This document shows positions 1,952 to 15,018 of a stretch of DNA of 64,000 bases, one piece after another. This stretch comes from an uncultured Alphaproteobacteria bacterium. Lineage in GTDB: Bacteria > Pseudomonadota > Alphaproteobacteria > Rhizobiales > Xanthobacteraceae. A program made the position numbers and the translations under genes. Position 1 is the first letter of the stretch. Each line of letters opens with the position of its first letter. The stretch covers positions 1,247,680-1,311,679 of the forward strand of contig CAWJPD010000003.1 of NCBI GenBank assembly GCA_963844635.1. Direction: 5' to 3'. The notes beneath the pieces were generated by a model, which made no database searches, was not told the DNA's origin, and worked only from the letters and a program-made list of their open reading frames with translations.

Positions 1952-2338
1952 TCAGCAGCCTGTGCGCCGAACGGCCCCGCGACGGTTCCAGTTACTTTCG
2001 CGGGTACCCTTAGCATTGCATCGTGATCGAGTCGTCACTACGGCCGCCGACGCGAGGCGTGCCCTATTCTGGGACAGGCGGGGCCGTCCTCGCAAACGAG
2101 CAGTAGCCGCACCCCCGGCAGACGATGCGGGCGCAGCCCGGTGCGAGGGCTGTTTCCGGTGCGACCATTCTCGCTGCGCGGCAGGCGCGCCAATGCTTAC
2201 GGCATTGATCGTGGCGAGGCGTCGCCCAATCAGCTTCACTCGCGAACCGATGTCGCCCCCGAGCGCAAGCGCGACGATGCCCACGACCGGGACTACCAAC
2301 AGTAGCAGGATGCCGAGACCGATTGGCTGTTGCCACAT
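1952..2338 (-). CDS. Possible small membrane protein translationally coupled to kynU (TGATG overlap); true length uncertain
   Basis: MWQQPIGLGILLLLVVPVVGIVALALGGD contains a strong TM helix, and about the first 60 codons are GC3-rich. The Arg-rich tail looks non-coding. Confidence 0.25.
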   Translation of the reverse strand: MWQQPIGLGILLLLVVPVVGIVALALGGDIGSRVKLIGRRLATINAVSIGAPAAQREWSHRKQPSHRAAPASSAGGAATARLRGRPRLSQNRARLASAAVVTTRSRCNAKGTRESNWNRRGAVRRTGC

Positions 2339-3567
2339 CACAGTGAGGTCAGCACATCAGCGATGCGCCCGACCGCAGCGTCGACTTCGTCGAGCGTTAT
2401 CGCAAGGCCAAAGCCGAAACGCACGTGTTCACCGCGGTGATCGGCTTGGATATCGGCGCCTGCCAGCCGGCGTTCGATGTCCTCGGCATTGCGTGCGCGG
2501 AATGAAAGAAAGTTGCCGTGAGCTGCGCCGTTGCCGAACGGAGTGATGAGGTCGCGACGCGCCAGTCTTTTCACGCCCAACAGCTCCAGGCGCTCCAAAA
2601 AGTGCCCCATCAGACTGGTCGCGTGTTCATGCACCTGCGCGATGTTGATTCCGTTTGCCGCCATCCAGGCAAGCACTGCACGCATGCGATACATGCCAAC
2701 CGGATCAAAAGTCGCGCCTAAAAAGCGGGCGCCGTCCGCCGGATAGGCGACTGCCTCGTCGGGCGAGTCGGCGAGTGCGCCAAATTCCGCAAACCACCCG
2801 GTGTCGGCAGGGCGCGGGCCATAACCGGGTGGGCAATGAAGGAAACAGACGCCCTCACCGGCCATGGCGTATTTGTAGCCACCGGCGATGTAAAACACCC
2901 GCCTCGCAACACTTGAAAGATCAGTCGGGCGCGCCATGAATCCGTGATAGCCGTCGATGACGATGAACGTCTCGATGCCGGGGACTGCCGCGGCCAAAGC
3001 TTCGATTTCGCCGCTGGTGGCGCCGCTCGTAAAGAAAACCTGGGAAACGAATAGGAGGTCATACCCTCCTTTCGTCGCGATCTCCCTGAAGCGCGTCGGA
3101 AAGGTCGCACTTGGCTCCGTAGGTACGTAATTGCAGATCGCCAAGCGGTCTTCTTGAAGACGAGCCACCTGCCGCCGGAAGCTATGGAACTCTGCATCGC
3201 TCGTTAGAATTCGCACAGGACGATTTGGCGAGAAGCAGGACAGGATTCTTCGCACGAACTCATGAGTGTTGGGTGCGATGGCAATCGCAGAAGGATCAGG
3301 GAGCTTGAGAACTGTTGCGATATCGGCCTGCAGGGCAGGCATCAATTCCCCGAACACGTATACCCATTTGTCGCCGGCGAGCCGTGCGGCGTCGTCCCAG
3401 CAGCGCATCTGCGCCTCGAACGTGACGTCAGGCCACTCGTGATGGCTATGCGCCGCAAGGTTGATGCGCCGCGGATTGGCGTCCCGAAATCGGGAGAAGT
3501 GACTGCGCAGGTCGAGCGTCGGCATGGTCTCCGTGTCCGCAAAGCGGGGCGTGACGACAATGTTCAC
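2338..3567 (-). CDS. kynU: Kynureninase
   Basis: 409 aa with a class-V aminotransferase-like fold. Motifs include ...LLFVSQVFFTSGA..., ...VIDGYHGF..., ...GGYKYAMAGEGVCFL... The GTG start overlaps the kynA stop (GTGA). Confidence 0.85.
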   Translation of the reverse strand: MNIVVTPRFADTETMPTLDLRSHFSRFRDANPRRINLAAHSHHEWPDVTFEAQMRCWDDAARLAGDKWVYVFGELMPALQADIATVLKLPDPSAIAIAPNTHEFVRRILSCFSPNRPVRILTSDAEFHSFRRQVARLQEDRLAICNYVPTEPSATFPTRFREIATKGGYDLLFVSQVFFTSGATSGEIEALAAAVPGIETFIVIDGYHGFMARPTDLSSVARRVFYIAGGYKYAMAGEGVCFLHCPPGYGPRPADTGWFAEFGALADSPDEAVAYPADGARFLGATFDPVGMYRMRAVLAWMAANGINIAQVHEHATSLMGHFLERLELLGVKRLARRDLITPFGNGAAHGNFLSFRARNAEDIERRLAGADIQADHRGEHVRFGFGLAITLDEVDAAVGRIADVLTSL

Positions 3568-4643
3568 TCGGTCGCGTAAACGAAACCGAGGCGCCGCTTC
3601 ACCTCGGCCGGCAGCTCTGGTAGCGAGGAACGCGGGATGAGGAATGTCGAAAGCTGGAACAGATCGCCAAAAATGCGATGCCGCTCGGCCGTGTTCCGCA
3701 AATAGGAAGAACCGGATGAACCACCAGTCCCGATCTTGCGGCCGATCATCCGTTCCACCATCAAAGCATGACGGTAACGCCAGAATGTGAGCGTCTCATC
3801 GAGATCCATAAGCAAGGAGAGAAGACGGAACGGCTGCTGCACCGCCGGCATTTCGCGATAGACGGTGATGAAGAGTGCTGCCTGGATGGCCTGCGGAGAA
3901 AGTCGCCATGTCGCTGGACGAGTGTCGGGGTCAAAGATCGCTGCAAACGCCGTGATCGCGCGATCGATCCCGCTTTTGTCCTGCGCTCGGCGCTCGGCTG
4001 GGATCGCCTCATCGGCTTCAATCGTTTTCACATCCGCCGAAAGATGTTTGATCACCGCAGCCCGATAGGCGGCGCGAAACGACTCACCTCCCCAGTCCAG
4101 GAAAGGCGTGCGGGCAAGCCAGGTGTCGAGCAGCGTCAGCATCGTCGGATGCGCTCGCGCCGACGCCAGCGCATTGCGGTCGTTAACGGAAAGGCGCTTC
4201 TCGACAGCTTCGCCGTCAAACCGGATTCGGGTCGTTTCGGACAGTCCAAGCCGCGTCTCGATCATTCGAAACTGAAGCGACTGAAAGCCCGAAGCGGGAA
4301 AAAGATAATCGCGGAAATCCAAAAAGTCCGCGGGCGTCATCGTCTCCAGCACATCGAGTTGCACGACCAGTAGCCTGAGGATTTCATGAATGCGCGCGAG
4401 CGAGTGCACGATGCGCGCCATGGCCTCGTCGCCCACCGGATTGCCAGAAAAGTCCTCTTCGATGCGATCGAACTCGTGCAGCACCTGCTTGAACCATAAT
4501 TCGTAAGCCTGGTGAACAATGATGAAAAGCATTTCATCGTGGACCGGGGCTCCATGCTTCGCGCTTTCAGGCGTCTGCAGCGACAGCAGTCGATCGAGCC
4601 GGAGATAATCTCCGTAATATACGGCGGGCGGGGTCATGGACAC
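3564..4643 (-). CDS. kynA: Tryptophan 2,3-dioxygenase (long form)
   Basis: YGDYLRLDRLLSLQTP...HDEMLFIIVHQAYELWFKQVLHE...FRDYL.PASGFQS.QFR...GTGGSSG..YL are TDO signatures. Start is GTG 4643 or ATG 4637. Confidence 0.88.
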   Translation of the reverse strand: MSMTPPAVYYGDYLRLDRLLSLQTPESAKHGAPVHDEMLFIIVHQAYELWFKQVLHEFDRIEEDFSGNPVGDEAMARIVHSLARIHEILRLLVVQLDVLETMTPADFLDFRDYLFPASGFQSLQFRMIETRLGLSETTRIRFDGEAVEKRLSVNDRNALASARAHPTMLTLLDTWLARTPFLDWGGESFRAAYRAAVIKHLSADVKTIEADEAIPAERRAQDKSGIDRAITAFAAIFDPDTRPATWRLSPQAIQAALFITVYREMPAVQQPFRLLSLLMDLDETLTFWRYRHALMVERMIGRKIGTGGSSGSSYLRNTAERHRIFGDLFQLSTFLIPRSSLPELPAEVKRRLGFVYATE

Positions 4644-4788
4644 CTACGCTTATCGAGAAGCTCACACATTGGGGGAGTCGCGTCCCGCAACGGAATCGAG
4701 TGTTGTCGGAACTTTAGGCGCTGTCGAGAGAGGAGCGCCGCGCGGGCTGCGGCATTCCGGCCCGCCATCCGAAAGAAGAAGCTTTAAT

Positions 4789-4813
4789 CTTGAATATTCA
4801 AGCTTGAAATATT
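4789..4813. promoter_or_regulatory. Perfect 14-bp palindrome CTTGAATATTCAAG plus an adjacent third half-site CTTGAAATATT, in the kynA/abm divergent promoter region
   Basis: Read directly from the sequence. This is an AT-rich island in a GC-rich intergenic region, about 60 bp upstream of the 4861 ATG. A MarR regulator is encoded in the downstream operon. Confidence 0.45.
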
Positions 4814-4860
4814 ATTGAAGAATCCGAGGCGTCAGGTGTTCCTGGCAAGCGAGGCATCGC

Positions 4861-7152
<2,292 letters not shown>

Positions 7153-7158
7153 GCAGCG

Positions 7159-7923
7159 ATGAACTCGCTCGCCGCCAGACATGCGTTGGTCACCGGTGGC
7201 GGAACGGGAATCGGCGCCGCCATCGCAATTGCGCTTGCACATGCCGGCGCAGCAGTCACGATATGTGGTCGACGTTTGGCGCCACTGCAAGCTGTCGCAG
7301 CCGAAAGTGGCAATATCCGCGCCGCGACTGCAGATGTGACCGACGAAGCCGCGATGACAACGCTCTATGAAGCGGCCGCGACGACCGGCAGGCCCGTCGA
7401 TATCGTTGTTGCCAATGCCGGCATTGCCGAGAGCGCGCCCGCCCACGTCACATCGCTCGATCTTTGGAACCGGACCCTCAACGTAAACCTGACCGGTGCA
7501 TTCGTTTCGGTGAAGCCAGCGCTCGTTGCAATGCGCGCCCGCGGCTTCGGGCGAATCGTGTTTATTGCCTCGACAGCGGGGCTCCGAGGATACGCGTATG
7601 TAGCTCCCTATGTGGCCGCAAAGCATGGCGTCATCGGATTGACCCGAGCGCTCGCACTTGAAACGGCCTCAGCCGGCATCACCGTAAATGCTGTATGCCC
7701 AGGATTCACCGAAACGGAGATGTTGGCCAACTCGATTGATCGCATTGTCTCCGCGACAAAACGCGATGCCGGGGACGTTCGTAGCGTGCTCGCTGCGGTC
7801 AATCCGCAGCAGCAATTCATTGAGCCGAAGGAAGTGGCCAATGTGGTGCTTTGGCTGTGCGATGCCGCAAGCGCAGCAATTACCGGTCAGGCCATTTCTG
7901 TTTCCGGGGGTGAGACATGGTGA
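7159..7923 (+). CDS. SDR-family oxidoreductase (3-hydroxyacyl-CoA dehydrogenase-like)
   Basis: [14 protein letters not shown] (TGxxxGxG) and YVAAKHG (YxxxK). Confidence 0.85.
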
Positions 7924-8393
7924 GCGGCTTGCCTGTTTCAGCCCGCCGGGAGACCGAAAGCAAAGCGCGGCTGCGGCTGTGGATCAGGCTGTTGCGCGCC
8001 ACCCGGGTCGTCGAAAGCAAGACGCGCGAACGGTTTAAGGCGAAGTTCAACGTCACATTGCCGCGTTTCGACGTGATGGCAGCGCTCTCCCGCAGGCCCG
8101 ACGGCATGCTGATGAGCGAGATTTCCCGCTTTCTGCTGGTGTCGAATGGCAACGTCACCGGTATCGTCGATCGGCTGGCATCGGACGGGCTGGTGGTGCG
8201 TTCCCAGCGTAACGGTGACCGCCGCACCTCGTTCGTGAGCCTGACCGCCAAGGGCCACGCGGCGTTCGCGACCATGTCGGAAGCGCACGAAAGCTGGATC
8301 GATGCACTGTTCGGGAGCCTTAGGGAGCGCGAAGCACAGCAATTGTCGTCAAAGCTGAAGTCTTTCAGCAGTGAGTGGGAGGGCGAAACATGA
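7917..8393 (+). CDS. MarR-family transcriptional regulator
   Basis: 158 aa. [48 protein letters not shown] is a winged-HTH MarR pattern. Overlaps both neighbouring genes. Confidence 0.8.
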
Positions 8394-9202
8394 AGGTAAT
8401 GGCCACGCTCAAACCCACACATTTTCTGTGGCGGATCGAGGACAATATCGCTGTCATCCAATTGAGCAGGCCGGAGCGCAAGAACCCTCTGACGTTCGAG
8501 TCCTATGCCGAGCTGCGCGACACCTTCCAGGACCTGCGCGATGCCGGCGACGTCACCGTCGTCGTGTTCCTGCCCAATGGCGGGAATTTCTGTTCGGGCG
8601 GCGATGTCCGCGACATCATCGGCCCGCTTGTCGGCATGGACATCAAAGCGTTGCTTGCGTTCACCCGCATGACCGGCGACCTTGTCAGGGCCATGCTCGG
8701 TTGCGGCAAGCCGATCATCGCCGCCGTTGACGGCGTTGCCGTCGGGGCCGGCGCAATTATCGCGATGGCCGCCGACTTTCGCCTCGCGACTCCCGAAGCA
8801 AAGACCGCGTTTCTGTTCACACGGGTCGGTCTTGCTGGTTGCGACATGGGGGCTTGCGCCATCCTGCCCCGACTGATCGGACAAGGCCGCGCCGCCGAGC
8901 TTTTGTACACAGGTCGGACGATGACAGCCGACGAGGGCGAACGCTGGGGCTTTTTCAATAGGCTCGTAGCCGCAGAGAAGCTTGCCGGGGAAGCGCTGTC
9001 GCTTGCCCGCGAACTCGCGTCAGGTCCGACCTTCGCGCACGGCATCACCAAGACACAGCTGAACCAGGAATGGTCGATGAGCCTCGACCAGGCGATCGAG
9101 TCGGAAGCGCAGGCGCAGGCGATCTGCATGCGAACCGGGGATTTCGAGCGCGCCTATCATGCCTTCGTTGCGAGGCAACGTCCCGCGTTCGAGGGCAATT
9201 GA
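8390..9202 (+). CDS. Enoyl-CoA hydratase/isomerase (crotonase) family protein
   Basis: ATGA overlap with the MarR stop. ...[10 protein letters not shown]...[23 protein letters not shown] is the crotonase oxyanion-hole region. Confidence 0.85.
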
Positions 9203-10350
9203 TGTCGGATAAGAGCTTTCTCGCTTGGCCCTTCTTCGAGGAGCGGCATCGTATCCTCGCCACACAACTCGACACTTGGTGCCGATCCCACCTCCCGATC
9301 GATGAGGACGATGTAGACGCTGCCTGCCGTGCACTTACGGCAAAGCTTGGCGAGGACGGCTGGCTGATGCACTCCGCCGTCGATCCGGATGCACCGGACC
9401 CTCTCGATCTGCGTGCTCTCTGCCTGATAAGGGAGACGCTTGCAAACCGAGATGCGCTCGCGGACTTCACCTTTGCCATGCAGGGGCTCGGTGCCGGCCC
9501 CATCAGCCTGTTCGGCACCACTGCGCACCGGCAATGGCTGAAGCGGACGCGGGCAGGGACGGCAATCGCGGCATTTGCGCTGTCCGAGGCGTCATCTGGA
9601 TCGGATGTTGCCAACATTGCCATGACAGCTACCCGCGATGGCAGCGATTACCTTCTCAATGGGGAAAAGACCTGGATCTCGAATGCCGGCATAGCCGATT
9701 TTTATGTGATTTTTGCCCGGACCGGCGAGCGGCCGGGAGCCAAGGGGATTTCCGCCTTTGTCGTGCCGGCAAGCGTCCCCGGCCTCGCGATCGTCGAGCG
9801 AATTGCGGTGATTGCGCCACACCCGCTGGCGCGCATAAGATTCGACAACGTGCGCGTGCCGGGTGACGCAATGATCGGCGCGCCCGGCGACGGCTTTCGG
9901 ATTGCGATGGCGACGCTCGACGTTTTCCGGACGACGGTCGCCGCAGCAGCACTCGGCTTCTCCCGCCGCGCGCTTGATGAAACGATAGCACGCGCCCGCG
10001 AGCGCCGGCTGTTCGGAGCTCCGCTTTGTGACCTGCAAATGGTGCAGGCCTATATTGCCGAGATGGCGCTCGATGTCGATGCACCCGCGCTTCTTGTCTA
10101 CCGTGCGGCCTGGATCAAGGATACGGGCCACGGCCGCGTAAGCCGTGAAGCCGCGATGGCGAAGCTGTTTGCGACCGAGCGCGCGCAGAAGGTGATCGAC
10201 AAGGCGGTGCAGATCCATGGCGGCGATGGCGTCCGCAGTGGGCACATTGTTGAAAACCTGTACCGAAACATCCGGGCGCTCCGAATCTACGAGGGCGCGT
10301 CCGAAATCCAGAAGACCATCATCGCGCGCCACATGCTTTCCGGAGGCTGA
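9202..10350 (+). CDS. Acyl-CoA dehydrogenase family protein
   Basis: The internal ATG at 9202 overlaps the upstream stop (TGATG). ...GEKTWISNAG...QIHGGDG...YEGASEIQKTIIARHML. Confidence 0.85.
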   Translation: MSDKSFLAWPFFEERHRILATQLDTWCRSHLPIDEDDVDAACRALTAKLGEDGWLMHSAVDPDAPDPLDLRALCLIRETLANRDALADFTFAMQGLGAGPISLFGTTAHRQWLKRTRAGTAIAAFALSEASSGSDVANIAMTATRDGSDYLLNGEKTWISNAGIADFYVIFARTGERPGAKGISAFVVPASVPGLAIVERIAVIAPHPLARIRFDNVRVPGDAMIGAPGDGFRIAMATLDVFRTTVAAAALGFSRRALDETIARARERRLFGAPLCDLQMVQAYIAEMALDVDAPALLVYRAAWIKDTGHGRVSREAAMAKLFATERAQKVIDKAVQIHGGDGVRSGHIVENLYRNIRALRIYEGASEIQKTIIARHMLSGG

Positions 10351-10352
10351 TC

Positions 10353-11996
10353 ATGCTCGGCCCAACCGCCCACATCGACACCTTCGCACGCGATAATCTG
10401 CCGCCCTTCGACCAGTGGCCGCGACTTTTGCTTGACCGCTTCAACTATCCCGAGGAGCTCAATGTCGCGGTCGAATTGACGGACCGCATGGTGGAACGCG
10501 GTTTTGGCGACCATGTTGCCCTGATTGGAAACGGCCGCAGACGTACCTACAAGGAGCTCTCCGACTGGACCAACCGGCTCGCCCGGGCCCTTGTCGAGGA
10601 CTACGGCATCGAGCCGGGAAACCGGATCCTGATCCGCTCCGCCAACAATCCGGCCATGGTTGCGTGCTGGCTTGCAGCGACCAAGGCAGGTGCGGTGGTG
10701 GTCAATACGATGCCGATGTTGCGCGCGGGTGAGATCGCCAAGGTCGTTGACAAGGCCGAGATTGGGTTGGCCCTCTGCGACACGCGACTGATGGACGAGT
10801 TGATTGCCTGTGCAAAGAAGAGCCGTTTTCTGACCAAAGTGATCGGTTTCGACGGCACGGCAAACCACGACGCCGAGCTCGACCGTATCGCTCTCGACAA
10901 GCCGGTGCGTTTTGTGGCGGTGAGGACTGGCCCTGACGACGTAGCGCTTTTGAGCTTCACATCCGGCACAACCGGGGAGCCGAAGGCGACGATGCACTTC
11001 CATCGCGACCTGCTGATCATCGCGGACGGCTATGCCGCGGAGATCCTTCACGTTACATCCGACGATGTATTCGTGGGATCGCCGCCGCTTGCGTTCACAT
11101 TCGGCCTTGGCGGTCTTGCTGTCTTTCCGTTGCGCTTCGGAGCCACCGCGACGCTGTTGGAGAATGCATCGCCTGCAAACATGATCGAGATTATCGAAAC
11201 CTACGGGGCAACGATCTCGTTCACTGCGCCAACCGCCTACCGCGCCATGCTGGCTGCGATGGACAGCGGCGCCGACCTGTCGTCGCTTCGCGTCGCCGTG
11301 TCGGCCGGCGAGACCCTGCCAGTACCCGTGTACAACGAGTGGGTGAAGAAGACCGGCAAACCCATTCTCGACGGCATCGGCTCCACGGAGCTGTTGCACA
11401 TCTTCATCTCAAATCGCGTCGATGACTGCGCCCCGGGATGCACCGGAAAGCCGGTCGGCGGCTACCACGCGAAAGTCGTCGACGATGACATGAACGAAAA
11501 GCCGCGCGGAGAGGTCGGTCGGCTGGCAATTCGCGGGCCGACCGGCTGCCGCTATTTATCGGACGCCCGACAATCGACATATGTGCAAGATGGTTGGAAC
11601 CTGACCGGCAATTCCTTTGTCGAGGACGAGGACGGCTATTTCCATTTTGCCGCGCGCAGTGACGATATCATCGTTTCGGCCGGCTATAACATCGCGGGTC
11701 CGGAGGTAGAGGCAGCGCTCTTGTCCCATCCAAACGTGAAGGAATGCGCTGTCATCGGCATACCAGATGACGAGCGCGGACAAATCGTGCAGGCTCACGT
11801 GGTGTTGGAGAACGGTGTGGCCGGCGGCAGCGAGACCGCGCGAGAGTTGCAGAATCATGTGAAGGCGACGATTGCGCCTTACAAATATCCGCGATCGATC
11901 AAGTTCACCGACACGCTTCCAAAAACGGAGACCGGGAAAATCCAACGGTTCCGGCTCCGACCGCTGCCGCAGCAAATGCCGGGGCTCGGCAAGTGA
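10353..11996 (+). CDS. abmG: 2-aminobenzoate(anthranilate)/benzoate-CoA ligase family, AMP-forming
   Basis: 547 aa. FTSGTTGEPKA (AMP-binding P-loop), ...GYNIAGPEVE..., ...PKTETGKIQRF. Substrate is inferred from context. Confidence 0.75.
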   Translation: MLGPTAHIDTFARDNLPPFDQWPRLLLDRFNYPEELNVAVELTDRMVERGFGDHVALIGNGRRRTYKELSDWTNRLARALVEDYGIEPGNRILIRSANNPAMVACWLAATKAGAVVVNTMPMLRAGEIAKVVDKAEIGLALCDTRLMDELIACAKKSRFLTKVIGFDGTANHDAELDRIALDKPVRFVAVRTGPDDVALLSFTSGTTGEPKATMHFHRDLLIIADGYAAEILHVTSDDVFVGSPPLAFTFGLGGLAVFPLRFGATATLLENASPANMIEIIETYGATISFTAPTAYRAMLAAMDSGADLSSLRVAVSAGETLPVPVYNEWVKKTGKPILDGIGSTELLHIFISNRVDDCAPGCTGKPVGGYHAKVVDDDMNEKPRGEVGRLAIRGPTGCRYLSDARQSTYVQDGWNLTGNSFVEDEDGYFHFAARSDDIIVSAGYNIAGPEVEAALLSHPNVKECAVIGIPDDERGQIVQAHVVLENGVAGGSETARELQNHVKATIAPYKYPRSIKFTDTLPKTETGKIQRFRLRPLPQQMPGLGK

Positions 11997-12415
11997 CTAG
12001 GCCTCTGACTTCGCACAGGTTTGTAAATCCACCCGGCTGGAAACGCGGCAACGGCTATGCCAACGGCGTCGTCGCGGAAGGGAGAATGGTCTTCGTCGCA
12101 GGGCAGATTGGATGGAATGCCGACCAGCAGCTTGTCAGCCCGGACTTCGTGGCCCAGGCGCGTCAAGCGCTGGAGAATGTCGTCACGATTGTGCGGGAAG
12201 CTGGTGGCTCAGCCGAGGACATTACCCGGCTCACATGGTTTATTACCGACAAGGCGGAATATTTGGCGCGATCGGAAGAACTCGGTGAGGCCTATCGCAG
12301 CGTGATGGGCAGGCATTTCTCTGCCATGACCATGGTCCAGGTGATCGCTCTCATCGAAGATGGCGCCAAAGTTGAGATAGAGGCGTCGGCAATACTGCCC
12401 GCTTTTCGGGGATAA
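11993..12415 (+). CDS. RidA/YjgF-family (reactive enamine/imine deaminase-like) protein
   Basis: 140 aa. ...YANGVVAEGRMVFVAGQIGW...MTMVQVIALIEDGAKVEIEA. The GTG start overlaps the ligase stop. Confidence 0.8.
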   Translation: MTRPLTSHRFVNPPGWKRGNGYANGVVAEGRMVFVAGQIGWNADQQLVSPDFVAQARQALENVVTIVREAGGSAEDITRLTWFITDKAEYLARSEELGEAYRSVMGRHFSAMTMVQVIALIEDGAKVEIEASAILPAFRG

Positions 12416-12539: not shown

Positions 12540-12713
12540 GAATCTGTCGGCGAGCTCGCGGACTGTTATGGTCATCGCGGCCGGGCCTTCGCCCTTGTCC
12601 ACGGCCCTGAGGATTCCACGCGCGGCTCTGCGGGCGTGGTCACGGGTGATCTCGCCGACCCGCGCAATCCGTTGCCAGCGGTGGGGGTCCGAGTTCGTTC
12701 GGTCCCGCGTCAC
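12540..12713 (-). pseudogene. N-terminal stub (about 55 aa) of a tyrosine integrase (DUF4102-type arm-binding region)
   Basis: ...RIARVGEITRDHARRAARGILRAVDKGEGPAAMTITVRELADRF resembles P4-type integrase N-termini. No catalytic domain follows. Confidence 0.55.
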
Positions 12714-12849
12714 GAGGATGATTACGGTGCGAGGCTATCGACCTGCCGCTTCGTAATCTTCGCCATAGAGAAAACCGCCGGCGCCGAGACTCCGTAGGCG
12801 CAAAATGCTAACACGGCAGCAATTCGACATAATTTGTAATCACGGTCCG

Positions 12850-12875
12850 GGGTTCGAATCCCTCAGCCCGCACCA
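12850..12875 (+). other. tRNA 3'-end fragment (T-loop, acceptor 3' strand, CCA); probable att remnant
   Basis: GGGTTCGAATCCCTCAGCCCGCACCA. No matching 5' acceptor strand (GCGGGCT) or D/anticodon arms lie upstream, so this is not an intact tRNA. Confidence 0.6.
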
Positions 12876-12984
12876 AGCAAGATTGTTGTCATCAAAGCGC
12901 AATGTCTAAATGGGCTTGCTCAGCGGCCGGCGGCTGGATGCCGAGCGCGGCTGACGGGGTGTGGTGCCGGTGTACGATCGAGAG

Positions 12985-15018
12985 ATGAAATTTTGGCTTT
13001 GCCGGACTGTGGCAATAGTGGTTGTCGCAGGAGGAGCCGCCAAGGGCGCGGACCTTCCGGTCCTGCCTGTACCGGATGCCTCGGCGGCAGCCCTCGGCGG
13101 CTGGTCCGGCTTTTACGCCGGCGCGCATCTCGGCTTTGCCGGCGGTCGTTCTGACTGGCGTTCTACGGGACTCGCTGGGGCACCCGATCTCTCGGGCTCG
13201 CTGGACTTCTTCCACGGCTACGACCCATTCAACGGCGCCGGCGGCCAATTCGGCGGCCTCACGGGCGGATTCAATTACATGCTCGGTCCGAGGCTGCTCC
13301 TCGGCGGCGAGGCCGACCTGTCCTTCCCCAGTACGCTTGGCGCATCTCAAAGCCTCCCCTCATTTCCAAGCGGTGTTTCCGGTTACGGCGACAGCGTCCT
13401 GACATCCGGCACGGTACGGGGCCGCATCGGCTATGATGCGAGCCATTGGCTCTATTACGTGACGGGCGAACTCGCGTGGACTTACGACGCGTTTACCGGG
13501 GCGCCCGTGAATTTATATCCTCTGGGGGTGCAAACCGGCGTCGTGCCGAACGCCTTTCTGGGACGCCTGGGGTGGGCGGCAGGTACCGGCATCGAGGTGC
13601 CGGTCGCGGCCGGTTGGAGCGCCAAATTTGAATACTTGTACGAACAGTTCGACCGCAGCGCGGTCGCCTTGCCGGGCGAGACATTCGCGTCGAACCTTTC
13701 GCTGCAGGAGGTCCGAGTCGGACTGAACGCCAAGCTCGGCCCCGGATCGGATGGCAACGTTCCGGCCGCGTCTTATTTCGACAGCGGCGATTGGATGGTC
13801 CGCGGCCAAACCACGTTCGTCAGCCAATACACCTTGCCATTCCGCTCGCCCTATCAAGGTCAGAACAGCCTCGTTCCCAACGAAGGACGTGAAACCGGGG
13901 ATGCCACGCTCTATGTGGGCCGGCGGCTATGGGATGGGGCCGAGCTCTGGGTTGATCCGGAAATCGACCAGGGTTTTGGCCTGAGCAACACGCTCGGCGT
14001 GGCGGGCTTCACCAGTGGAGAAGCCTACAAGGTCGGCTTCAGCTATCCCTATCTGCGACTGCCTCGCATGTTCGTGAGGCAAACCATCGACCTTGGCGGA
14101 GACAGCGTCAAGGTCGAGCCCGACCTCAATCAGTTCGGGGGAACGCAGACCGCCAACCGGCTGGTCATCACGATTGGGAAATACAGCGTCTCCGACCTGT
14201 TCGACACGATCGCTTATGCGCACGACCCGCGCACCGATTTCCTGAACTGGACCCTCGTCGATGCAGGCACCTTCGATTATGCCGCCGATGCGTGGGGTTT
14301 CACCTACGGAGCGACGGCCGAATGGTATCAGGGCGATTGGACGTTGCGCACCGGCCTGTTCGATCTTTCGGCCATTCCCAACAGCGCTGATCTCGACCCG
14401 ACCTTCGACCAGTTCCAGTTTGTCTATGAACTCCAGCACCGCCACGAGCTGTGGGGACAGCCGGGCATGCTGGCCGTGGTCGGGTATTTGACCCGCGGCC
14501 GAATGGGCCGGTTCGATGACGCGATCGCTCTCGCCGTTGAGACCGGAACGACGCCCTCAACGGCGCTGGTGCGCCAATACGCCAGCCGGCCCGGCGTGAA
14601 CCTCAATTTCGCGCAGCAGCTGACGCCCGGCATCGGAATATTCGCGCGTGCCGGCTGGGCGGATGGCAATTACGAACCCTATGAGTTCACGGACGTCGAT
14701 CGAACGGTTTCCGGCGGCGTATCGATTTCGGGCCGCTTCTGGAACCGAGCCGACGACACCCTGGGCATCGCTGGCGTTGTCAACGGCATTTCCAAGGTCC
14801 ACGAAGCGTATCTGAACGATGGCGGCCTCGGCATTCTGGTCGGCGACGGGCAATTGCCTCATCCGGGTCTCGAGCAAATCATCGAGACCTACTATAGCAT
14901 TTCGCTGCCGGCTGCATGGCGAGCGAGCGCAGACTACCAATTCATAATGAACCCGGCCTACAACCGCGACCGCGGTCCTGCTTCGGTCATCGCAGCGCGT
15001 TTTCACCGCGCGTTCTGA
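12985..15018 (+). CDS. Outer-membrane protein: N-terminal small beta-barrel (Omp25/RopB-like) fused to a C-terminal OprB-type carbohydrate porin
   Basis: Signal peptide MKFWLCRTVAIVVVAGGAAKGA. Residues about 30-260 end in ...SLQEVRVGLNAKLG, a complete small-barrel pattern. The remainder, ...DPEIDQGFGLSNTLGVAGF...ADYQFIMNPAYNRDRGPASVIAARFHRAF, is OprB-like. Confidence 0.7.
   Translation: MKFWLCRTVAIVVVAGGAAKGADLPVLPVPDASAAALGGWSGFYAGAHLGFAGGRSDWRSTGLAGAPDLSGSLDFFHGYDPFNGAGGQFGGLTGGFNYMLGPRLLLGGEADLSFPSTLGASQSLPSFPSGVSGYGDSVLTSGTVRGRIGYDASHWLYYVTGELAWTYDAFTGAPVNLYPLGVQTGVVPNAFLGRLGWAAGTGIEVPVAAGWSAKFEYLYEQFDRSAVALPGETFASNLSLQEVRVGLNAKLGPGSDGNVPAASYFDSGDWMVRGQTTFVSQYTLPFRSPYQGQNSLVPNEGRETGDATLYVGRRLWDGAELWVDPEIDQGFGLSNTLGVAGFTSGEAYKVGFSYPYLRLPRMFVRQTIDLGGDSVKVEPDLNQFGGTQTANRLVITIGKYSVSDLFDTIAYAHDPRTDFLNWTLVDAGTFDYAADAWGFTYGATAEWYQGDWTLRTGLFDLSAIPNSADLDPTFDQFQFVYELQHRHELWGQPGMLAVVGYLTRGRMGRFDDAIALAVETGTTPSTALVRQYASRPGVNLNFAQQLTPGIGIFARAGWADGNYEPYEFTDVDRTVSGGVSISGRFWNRADDTLGIAGVVNGISKVHEAYLNDGGLGILVGDGQLPHPGLEQIIETYYSISLPAAWRASADYQFIMNPAYNRDRGPASVIAARFHRAF

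Follow-up and report, generated by a model that had tools for sequence, protein, structure and literature searches.

We analysed a 64,000-nucleotide stretch of DNA (the window) from an uncultured soil alphaproteobacterium of the order Rhizobiales and family Xanthobacteraceae (assembly GCA_963844635.1, contig CAWJPD010000003.1), in which the genes for a tryptophan 2,3-dioxygenase (TDO) and a pyridoxal phosphate (PLP) enzyme diverge from a seven-gene operon. A preliminary description made from the letters of the window had listed nine genes here, a kynA–kynU pair facing away from the operon, and this layout is borne out by the list of open reading frames (ORFs) and by profile matches: all nine genes were found at their coordinates, with the expected families, in the ORF list and two profile libraries (Table 1). 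The operon has the make-up of an abm-type cluster: its seven packed, co-directional genes include those for a ligase, for the fused flavoenzyme, for a regulator of the MarR family and for enzymes of the beta-oxidation type. The gene families, the operon structure, the conserved synteny and the co-occurrence reported below are direct observations. The G+C content of the window is 60–62%, and the genome searched for missing genes is 94% complete.

Table 1. Genes and control region of the locus, in window coordinates (CoA, coenzyme A; SDR, short-chain dehydrogenase/reductase; OYE, old yellow enzyme; DH, dehydrogenase)
Feature	Position	Strand	Match or remark
Kynureninase-like class-V PLP enzyme ("kynU")	2338–3567	-	409 aa from GTG 3567, or 395 aa from ATG 3525
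TDO (kynA), long animal-type	3564–4643	-	PF03301, 321.9 bits
Divergent control region, 217 bp	4644–4860		Between the two arms
Fused FAD monooxygenase/OYE FMN reductase, AbmA/SdgC type, 763 aa	4861–7152	+	NF006101, 1282.9 vs 1078 bits
SDR, 3-hydroxybutyrate-DH/FabG-like	7159–7923	+	adh_short, 182.6 bits
MarR-family regulator inside the operon	7917–8393	+	PF12802 and PF01047
Crotonase-superfamily protein, PaaG-like	8390–9202	+	NF006107, 464.5 vs 330 bits
Acyl-CoA dehydrogenase	9202–10350	+	PF02770 and PF00441
Aryl-CoA ligase, benzoate-CoA ligase family	10353–11996	+	TIGR02262, 367.6 vs cut-off 375.25 bits
RidA-family protein	11993–12415	+	PF01042, 81.2 bits; TIGR00004, 61.3 vs 106.25 bits

Four of the six operon junctions overlap: SDR to MarR by seven nucleotides (ATGGTGA), MarR to crotonase by ATGA, crotonase to acyl-CoA dehydrogenase by one nucleotide (TGATG) and ligase to RidA by GTGA. 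The remaining two, which had also been described as overlapping, are small gaps of 6 nt (monooxygenase/reductase to SDR) and 2 nt (dehydrogenase to ligase). For the crotonase and the dehydrogenase, the longest ORFs begin too early, and the likely starts are ATG 8390, which lies behind GGGAGG and overlaps the MarR stop, and ATG 9202. On the other arm, the proposed GTGA coupling of kynA and kynU holds if the PLP enzyme starts at GTG 3567 and is lost if it starts at ATG 3525, which leaves a 38-nt spacer. ATG 3525 has GGAG just 5' of it and is the start used by homologues of 395 residues, and the first 14 residues read from GTG 3567 are neither conserved nor confidently folded. Under either start, the two genes are close and co-directional.

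The kynA assignment stands (the PF03301 cut-off is 34.9 bits), with the correction that the enzyme is of the long, animal-type form. Its best matches in the PDB are the Drosophila and human TDOs (304 and 278 bits), compared to approximately 125 bits for the short bacterial type of Xanthomonas and Cupriavidus, and residues 9–352 match Drosophila TDO (4hka) with an E-value of 1.5e-89. TDO is present as a single copy in the genome.

The PLP enzyme had been taken as the product of a kynureninase gene, kynU. It is not a canonical kynureninase, since the kynureninase model TIGR01814 matches nothing in the genome and a phmmer search with the protein finds no match in the PDB. Pfam yields a weak match to Aminotran_5 (27.9 bits) and a sub-threshold match to KYNU_C (14.6 vs 27 bits). 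When a profile built from 56 family members was compared to the PDB, the best match was the kynureninase of Pseudomonas fluorescens (1qz9; E-value 1.4e-22), ten orders of magnitude better than cystine lyase and human kynureninase. Residues Asp205, Lys232, Trp258 and Arg383 of the PLP enzyme align with Asp201, Lys227, Trp256 and Arg375 of 1qz9 and are invariant or at least 90% conserved among the 56 members. We take these 1qz9 residues to be the aspartate (Asp201), the PLP lysine (Lys227), the phosphate-binding tryptophan (Trp256) and the carboxylate-binding arginine (Arg375). An AlphaFold2 model of the enzyme (mean predicted local distance difference test score, pLDDT, 94.5) gives the same answer in Foldseek: 1qz9 is the best match, with template modelling (TM) scores of 0.81/0.82 over 405 columns, and SufS-type desulfurases score approximately 0.75. 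A desulfurase was considered and rejected, because none of the cysteines is conserved among the 56 members. Judged by its predicted fold and aligned catalytic residues, the enzyme is thus kynureninase-like; by the family model it is not a kynureninase, and its sequence identity to that enzyme is no more than about 20%.

This protein belongs to a large class-V PLP family, of which kynureninase is the nearest solved relative. The family comprises 289 clusters at 50% identity (E ≤ 1e-30), spread over Alphaproteobacteria, Acidimicrobiia, Acidobacteriota, Myxococcota and others. JGI labels its members kynureninase or cysteine desulfurase, NCBI uses generic names, and the Atlas clusters carry the same mixture as JGI and NCBI. 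A near-invariant N-terminal HSHHxWPD motif lies outside the region matched by the kynureninase profile. A TDO gene lies directly upstream and on the same strand in 64 of 82 loci with a homologue of the PLP enzyme, drawn from several phyla. Among 150 sampled genomes of the order, five others contain the family, and in each of them TDO adjoins it and the fused flavoenzyme is present somewhere in the genome. This context supports a kynureninase-type job for the PLP enzyme; it does not prove a clean replacement of canonical kynureninase.

At the head of the operon, residues 1–760 of the fused flavoenzyme cover positions 1–763 of model NF006101. The protein consists of a PF01494 domain (residues 3–319) and a PF00724 domain (residues 395–730), and the two halves match structures of VioD and of OYE/XenA in the PDB. 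It is encoded by a single-copy gene, and we propose, from its family and context, that it is a 2-aminobenzoyl-CoA monooxygenase/reductase. Ralstonia proteins that entered the databases under the name 2-aminobenzoate-CoA ligase share 52.8% identity with the ligase of the window. Its plasmid-encoded homologues fall into two groups, one of at least 42% identity in abm contexts and the other of at most 35% identity, composed of other benzoate-CoA ligases. We therefore predict an AbmG-like anthranilate-CoA ligase.

A Phyllobacterium plasmid and the megaplasmids of Ruegeria pomeroyi DSS-3 and Ralstonia solanacearum have the seven genes in the order seen here, flavoenzyme–SDR–MarR–crotonase–dehydrogenase–ligase–RidA. 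The flavoenzyme shares 75, 72 and 61% identity with its counterparts in these three, respectively, and the ligase shares 77% with that of R. pomeroyi and 53% with that of Ralstonia, where the depositors annotated the orthologous ligase as 2-aminobenzoate-CoA ligase. Beyond the common order, each operon has its own additions: the one in R. solanacearum includes an extra thioesterase; in R. pomeroyi there is an extra small cupin, and a short bacterial TDO with an alpha/beta hydrolase takes the place of the long TDO and PLP enzyme; the Phyllobacterium operon is paired with a second hydratase, a 3-hydroxyacyl-CoA dehydrogenase and an ABC transporter. On this gene order and identity, the operon is a conserved abm-type cluster that forms a fixed unit across Alpha- and Betaproteobacteria.

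Clusters named abm have already been listed in genome papers on Cupriavidus (PMC8879955) and Bordetella (PMC2572626), and PMC4539516 reviews the pathway in outline and traces it to Azoarcus evansii. The abm genes of Azoarcus (Aromatoleum) evansii (Schuhle et al. 2001, as outlined in PMC4539516) likewise combine an AMP-forming aryl-CoA ligase and a fused 2-aminobenzoyl-CoA monooxygenase/reductase with enzymes of the beta-oxidation type and a MarR-type regulator. Orthology to the Azoarcus genes was inferred through Ralstonia and other annotated operons. The locus differs in that its cluster stands head-to-head with tryptophan-opening genes; it also has no transporter component, which the Azoarcus cluster presumably includes. 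It is a variant of the Azoarcus abm system and not a new pathway. The idea that the SDR, crotonase and dehydrogenase are compact candidates for the missing pathway steps survives in a less specific form, because the set is not particular to this locus: it is conserved across Alpha- and Betaproteobacteria, and its presence beside the Azoarcus genes has been on record since 2001.

Three other systems share part of this logic. The canonical kynA–kynB–kynU set also runs from tryptophan to anthranilate, with the TDO gene here directly upstream of a kynureninase-fold PLP enzyme; the locus differs in having a long TDO, a PLP enzyme that fails TIGR01814 and no TIGR03035 equivalog anywhere in the genome. 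The sdg cluster of Streptomyces sp. WA46, from which the NCBIfam name was taken, has in common the NF006101 flavoenzyme and an ortho-substituted benzoyl-CoA supplied by an aryl-CoA ligase. The sdg route, which we take to end in gentisate with ring cleavage by gentisate 1,2-dioxygenase, is distinguished from the present operon by the dioxygenase, which has no linked counterpart here; beta-oxidation-type and RidA-like genes are found instead. Finally, the paa and box hybrid pathways also combine CoA activation, O2-dependent dearomatisation and ring chemistry by the crotonase superfamily, but here a fused flavoprotein replaces the di-iron epoxidase and an amino substituent needs to be removed.

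Since about 1990, anthranilate has been known to be degraded aerobically by a route that depends on CoA; to our knowledge, the steps of this route past the first non-aromatic intermediate have never been worked out. As far as this can be checked, the earlier remark to that effect stands. Tools for pathway annotation still pass over the breakdown of tryptophan by this route, and the authors of GapMind gave "a lack of knowledge" in 2022 as their reason for not including anthraniloyl-CoA monooxygenase/reductase in tryptophan degradation (PMC9007349). The only metabolite hints that we found come from anthranilate-grown Arthrobacter, in which a C7H8O4-CoA consistent with cyclohexanedione-carboxyl-CoA was detected along with hydroxyanthraniloyl-CoA (PMC3534580).

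Against this background, the crotonase and RidA-like protein deserve a closer look. Their families, as originally assigned, are confirmed, but the crotonase is PaaG-like and the RidA-like protein lacks the archetypal arginine. In the latter, Met112 occupies the arginine column, the "P-A-R-S" of solved RidA proteins aligning to "S-A-M-T", and of 16 operon-linked homologues, which come from Alphaproteobacteria, Betaproteobacteria and Acidimicrobiia, 14 have methionine at this position. The arginine required for imino acids is consistently missing from the RidA-like member of the operon. With the arginine replaced and the TIGR00004 score below the cut-off, the protein falls outside archetypal RidA. 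Archetypal RidA is a 2-iminopropanoate/2-aminoacrylate deaminase whose arginine binds the substrate carboxylate. Loss of this residue would fit a substrate without a free alpha-carboxylate, its carboxyl group being tied up as a thioester, and the conservation of a RidA-like gene in the operon fits a nitrogen-bearing substrate. We propose that the protein hydrolyses an enamine or imine ring CoA ester and releases ammonia.

The crotonase is most similar in the PDB to an uncharacterised Streptomyces protein (3g64), followed by PaaG (4fzw_C; 137 bits). In the alignment with both, the hydratase glutamate pair, at positions that we take to be those of rat enoyl-CoA hydratase, is missing, and G-A-G-A-I-I-A and F-T-R-V-G-L are found there; an aspartate occupies the P-D-x-G position of PaaG. 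We thus predict an isomerase/tautomerase or a ring-opening hydrolase rather than a simple hydratase. Taken together, a PaaG-like crotonase and an arginine-less RidA indicate that the chemistry is likely neither plain hydration nor 2-aminoacrylate deamination. For the SDR, even the best NCBIfam models score below their cut-offs; like MarR, it keeps its place in the operons of Phyllobacterium, Ruegeria and Ralstonia, and we propose a ketone/alcohol oxidoreductase acting on the ring or ring-opened CoA ester. The acyl-CoA dehydrogenase is closest to the uncharacterised structures 5jsc and 5idu (470 bits), followed by short-chain acyl-CoA dehydrogenases.

Linkage between the operon and tryptophan opening recurs in several arrangements. 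In Phreatobacter stygius, the long TDO and the PLP enzyme are convergent with abm genes; in R. pomeroyi, the short TDO and the alpha/beta hydrolase are divergent from the operon; in four sampled genomes of the order, from three genera (G003, G028, G035 and G063, with G003 and G063 sharing one), TDO lies 5–6 kb downstream on the same strand; and in approximately 12 loci of Acidimicrobiia and Acidobacteria, homologues of the crotonase, dehydrogenase and RidA are found beside TDO and the PLP enzyme. The flavoenzyme is present in 29 of the 33 sampled genomes with TDO and in 17 of the 117 without it, figures that give an indicative contrast rather than a statistical test since the genomes are kin and not independent. 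In the literature, we found almost nothing that joins anthraniloyl-CoA to kynureninase or TDO. The original claim that the operon ties the kynurenine pathway to CoA-dependent dearomatisation of anthranilate is thus supported in part, by a conserved abm-type operon that is linked to TDO in independent layouts, and it carries the several corrections given here.

The Phreatobacter locus (L008, 1944–8879) contains, upstream of TDO and the PLP enzyme, a branched-chain-type ABC transporter and a second MarR. The same locus also encodes a D-serine-dehydratase-like PLP protein (PF01168 and PF14031) and a second YjgF-family protein, a larger regulon than that of the window.

No kynurenine formamidase gene is found in the window, as had been noted: TIGR03035 (KynB) has no match there, and its best match in the genome scores 52.4 bits against a cut-off of 223.05. 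The genome contains six cyclase-family (PF04199) paralogues, all unlinked to the locus, and three creatininase-family genes, none of them near it. Among the neighbours of the 82 loci, no formamidase-type gene recurs. The absence of kynB from the window had been put forward as notable; the absence is correct, and the genome has no equivalog either, but this is the usual state of affairs, since only 5 of the 150 genomes have a KynB equivalog, compared to 33 each for TDO and for canonical kynureninase. Lack of kynB is the rule in the order and not a special feature of this locus. On the R. pomeroyi megaplasmid (L091, 7250–8867), the alpha/beta hydrolase gene is co-transcribed with the short TDO and is a candidate for a non-orthologous kynurenine formamidase; in the present genome, this hydrolase has only generic relatives of 26–29% identity. 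Several recurrent clusters of neighbouring ORFs had no Pfam match and were set aside, since high-GC genes read on their antisense strand most likely account for them; L064_270, for example, is antisense to the crotonase gene.

The control region between the two arms contains a perfect 14-bp AT-rich palindrome, CTTGAATATTCAAG, at 4789–4802, 58 bp upstream of the flavoenzyme start. Its 12-nt core occurs once in the window, which is not significant alone given a chance expectation of 0.83 at up to two mismatches. In Phreatobacter, an AT-rich inverted repeat of other sequence is found at the equivalent place. The palindrome is a reasonable candidate for the operator of the operon-encoded MarR. In the divergent region, no convincing sigma-70 match was found, and promoter and terminator scans did no better than with shuffled sequence.

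As to origin, the flavoenzyme shares 71–77% identity with homologues in other families of the order and only 54–55% with those in its own (the comparison included genomes G041 and G093). Just past the operon, at 12540–12862 on the minus strand, lies a frameshifted remnant of the N-terminal arm-binding domain of an integrase, in which MAKITKRQVDSL can be read and the coding then shifts to a different frame. A search of the window with ARAGORN gave no tRNA gene. The remnant may be what is left of an island end. Because flavoenzyme identity is higher outside the family than within it and an integrase remnant adjoins the operon, horizontal acquisition of the operon is suggested.

We consider it likely that the locus is a two-part tryptophan catabolic regulon, in which the TDO/PLP arm leads to anthranilate and the abm-type operon takes it further via a CoA thioester. 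The long-form TDO would open the indole ring of tryptophan to yield N-formylkynurenine, from which a formamidase encoded away from the locus would remove the formyl group. Kynurenine would then be cleaved to anthranilate and alanine by the kynureninase-like PLP enzyme, and the ligase would convert anthranilate to 2-aminobenzoyl-CoA, the substrate predicted for the flavoenzyme. After dearomatisation, the arginine-less RidA-like protein and the PaaG-like crotonase would tautomerise the enamine and hydrolyse it to cyclohexanedione-carboxyl-CoA with loss of ammonia, and the ring would be opened; the SDR and the acyl-CoA dehydrogenase would serve in beta-oxidation-like steps after ring opening. MarR may control the divergent promoter region, probably by sensing anthranilate or its CoA ester. 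We infer every substrate in this scheme, notably the order and the roles of RidA, crotonase, SDR and dehydrogenase.

Several points weigh against this reading, and they have to be considered along with the explanations that they might favour. The full-length TIGR02262 match of the ligase is slightly below the cut-off, the PLP enzyme fails the kynureninase model and belongs to a family of which we know no assayed member, three of the six sampled genomes with this family have a canonical kynureninase (the other three, this one among them, have none), the co-occurrence counts come from related genomes, and no formamidase was identified at the locus or as an equivalog in the genome. The name that NCBI attaches to NF006101, matched above its cut-off, is bifunctional salicylyl-CoA 5-hydroxylase/oxidoreductase, and the genome also encodes a gentisate 1,2-dioxygenase equivalog (467.8 bits). 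Both would suit an operon for salicylate degradation, with a salicylyl-CoA ligase and a salicylyl-CoA 5-hydroxylase leading to gentisate as in Streptomyces sdg, and with TDO and the PLP enzyme as unrelated neighbours. This is highly improbable: the gentisate dioxygenase gene lies outside the operon, approximately 190 kb away, the beta-oxidation-type genes and the RidA-like protein are needless on the way from salicylate to gentisate, and the orthologous Ralstonia ligase was deposited as a 2-aminobenzoate-CoA ligase. The operon also repeatedly adjoins TDO and co-occurs with it, which favours anthranilate over salicylate; together, the TDO linkage and the RidA-like gene favour 2-aminobenzoyl-CoA over salicylyl-CoA as the probable substrate of the flavoenzyme. 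The genome contains no anthranilate 1,2-dioxygenase equivalog. It does encode a 3-hydroxyanthranilate 3,4-dioxygenase on another contig, and with this enzyme and the gentisate dioxygenase elsewhere in the genome, other fates of tryptophan-derived aromatics are possible.

In another reading, the two arms are neighbours without a common pathway: the substrate of the PLP enzyme would be 3-hydroxykynurenine, the product feeding the 3-hydroxyanthranilate dioxygenase, or some different amino acid, and the operon would receive its anthranilate from elsewhere. The presence of that dioxygenase and the low similarity of the PLP enzyme to kynureninase count for it, as does the outcome of TIGR01814, which has no match at E ≤ 1 for this protein and none in the whole genome. 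Furthermore, approximately 69 of the 82 TDO–PLP loci have no abm genes within 10 kb, and the integrase remnant and the identity pattern of the flavoenzyme suggest that the operon arrived by transfer. We nevertheless regard separate pathways as very unlikely, since all five other sampled genomes with the PLP family carry the monooxygenase/reductase and TDO–PLP pairs stand beside abm genes in Phreatobacter and Acidimicrobiia too; moreover, cleavage of hydroxykynurenine is a kynureninase reaction anyway. It is equally hard to believe that the PLP enzyme cleaves N-formylkynurenine directly, with the formyl group lost later or spontaneously and no separate formamidase. The missing canonical kynB, the lack of a formamidase gene that recurs near the 82 loci and the HSHHxWPD motif that sets the family apart would all agree with direct cleavage, but the R. 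pomeroyi TDO is paired with an alpha/beta hydrolase, and the counts for kynB and canonical kynU (5 and 33 of 150) make an unlinked or non-orthologous formamidase an ordinary situation in the order.

What makes the locus valuable is thus a kynureninase-like family and a sharper choice of candidates for the steps that are missing from the anthranilate route; the pathway itself is not new. A sister family that standard models miss probably carries out the kynureninase step in many bacteria, and tryptophan catabolism in soil bacteria would therefore be under-called by current annotation. The salicylyl-CoA 5-hydroxylase label that the key enzyme bears in public annotation deserves a check. A bolder view would have the PLP family as a large sister family of kynureninase that works together with TDO in most of its loci and perhaps differs from canonical KynU in its chemistry, for instance by accepting N-formylkynurenine, hence the lack of a formamidase gene travelling with it. 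In the same view, the arginine-less RidA and the PaaG-like crotonase would supply the deaminase and the ring-opening enzyme that the 2-aminobenzoyl-CoA pathway has long lacked; we think it unlikely that all of this applies.

The 3-hydroxyanthranilate 3,4-dioxygenase (NbaC equivalog) is encoded in a separate region (L093; G000:C5:207000–224000; ORFs 6399–7925, 8029–8598 and 8763–9809, minus strand), where its neighbours are a weak TrpX-like binding protein and a fusion of Rieske ferredoxin and ferredoxin reductase that resembles AndAb/AndAa. The region may encode a second route for anthranilate-type compounds. In several acidimicrobial loci, an aromatic amino acid ammonia-lyase gene (L046, 15582–17150) is found near the TDO–PLP–crotonase–dehydrogenase group.

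Downstream of the PLP gene, an ORF of 129 aa at 1952–2341 (minus strand) overlaps the stop codon of the PLP gene (TGATG). It has no Pfam match and no homologue in the 82 related loci, and with its falling third-position G+C content and arginine-rich tail it is probably not a gene. Further downstream, at 981–1859 on the minus strand, lies a gene for a TctC-family solute receptor, which may be truncated; its Pfam match spans positions 2–191 of a model of 274. TctC genes also follow the PLP homologue in loci L009 and L068, and the genome has at least 11 TctC paralogues. The first 822 nucleotides of the window (minus strand) encode the 5' part of a LeuC-type large subunit of isopropylmalate dehydratase, which runs off the window end. 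At the other side of the operon, an outer-membrane protein of 685 aa is encoded at 12961–15018 (plus strand), with an N-terminal outer-membrane beta-barrel (PF13505, just below the cut-off) and a full OprB porin domain.

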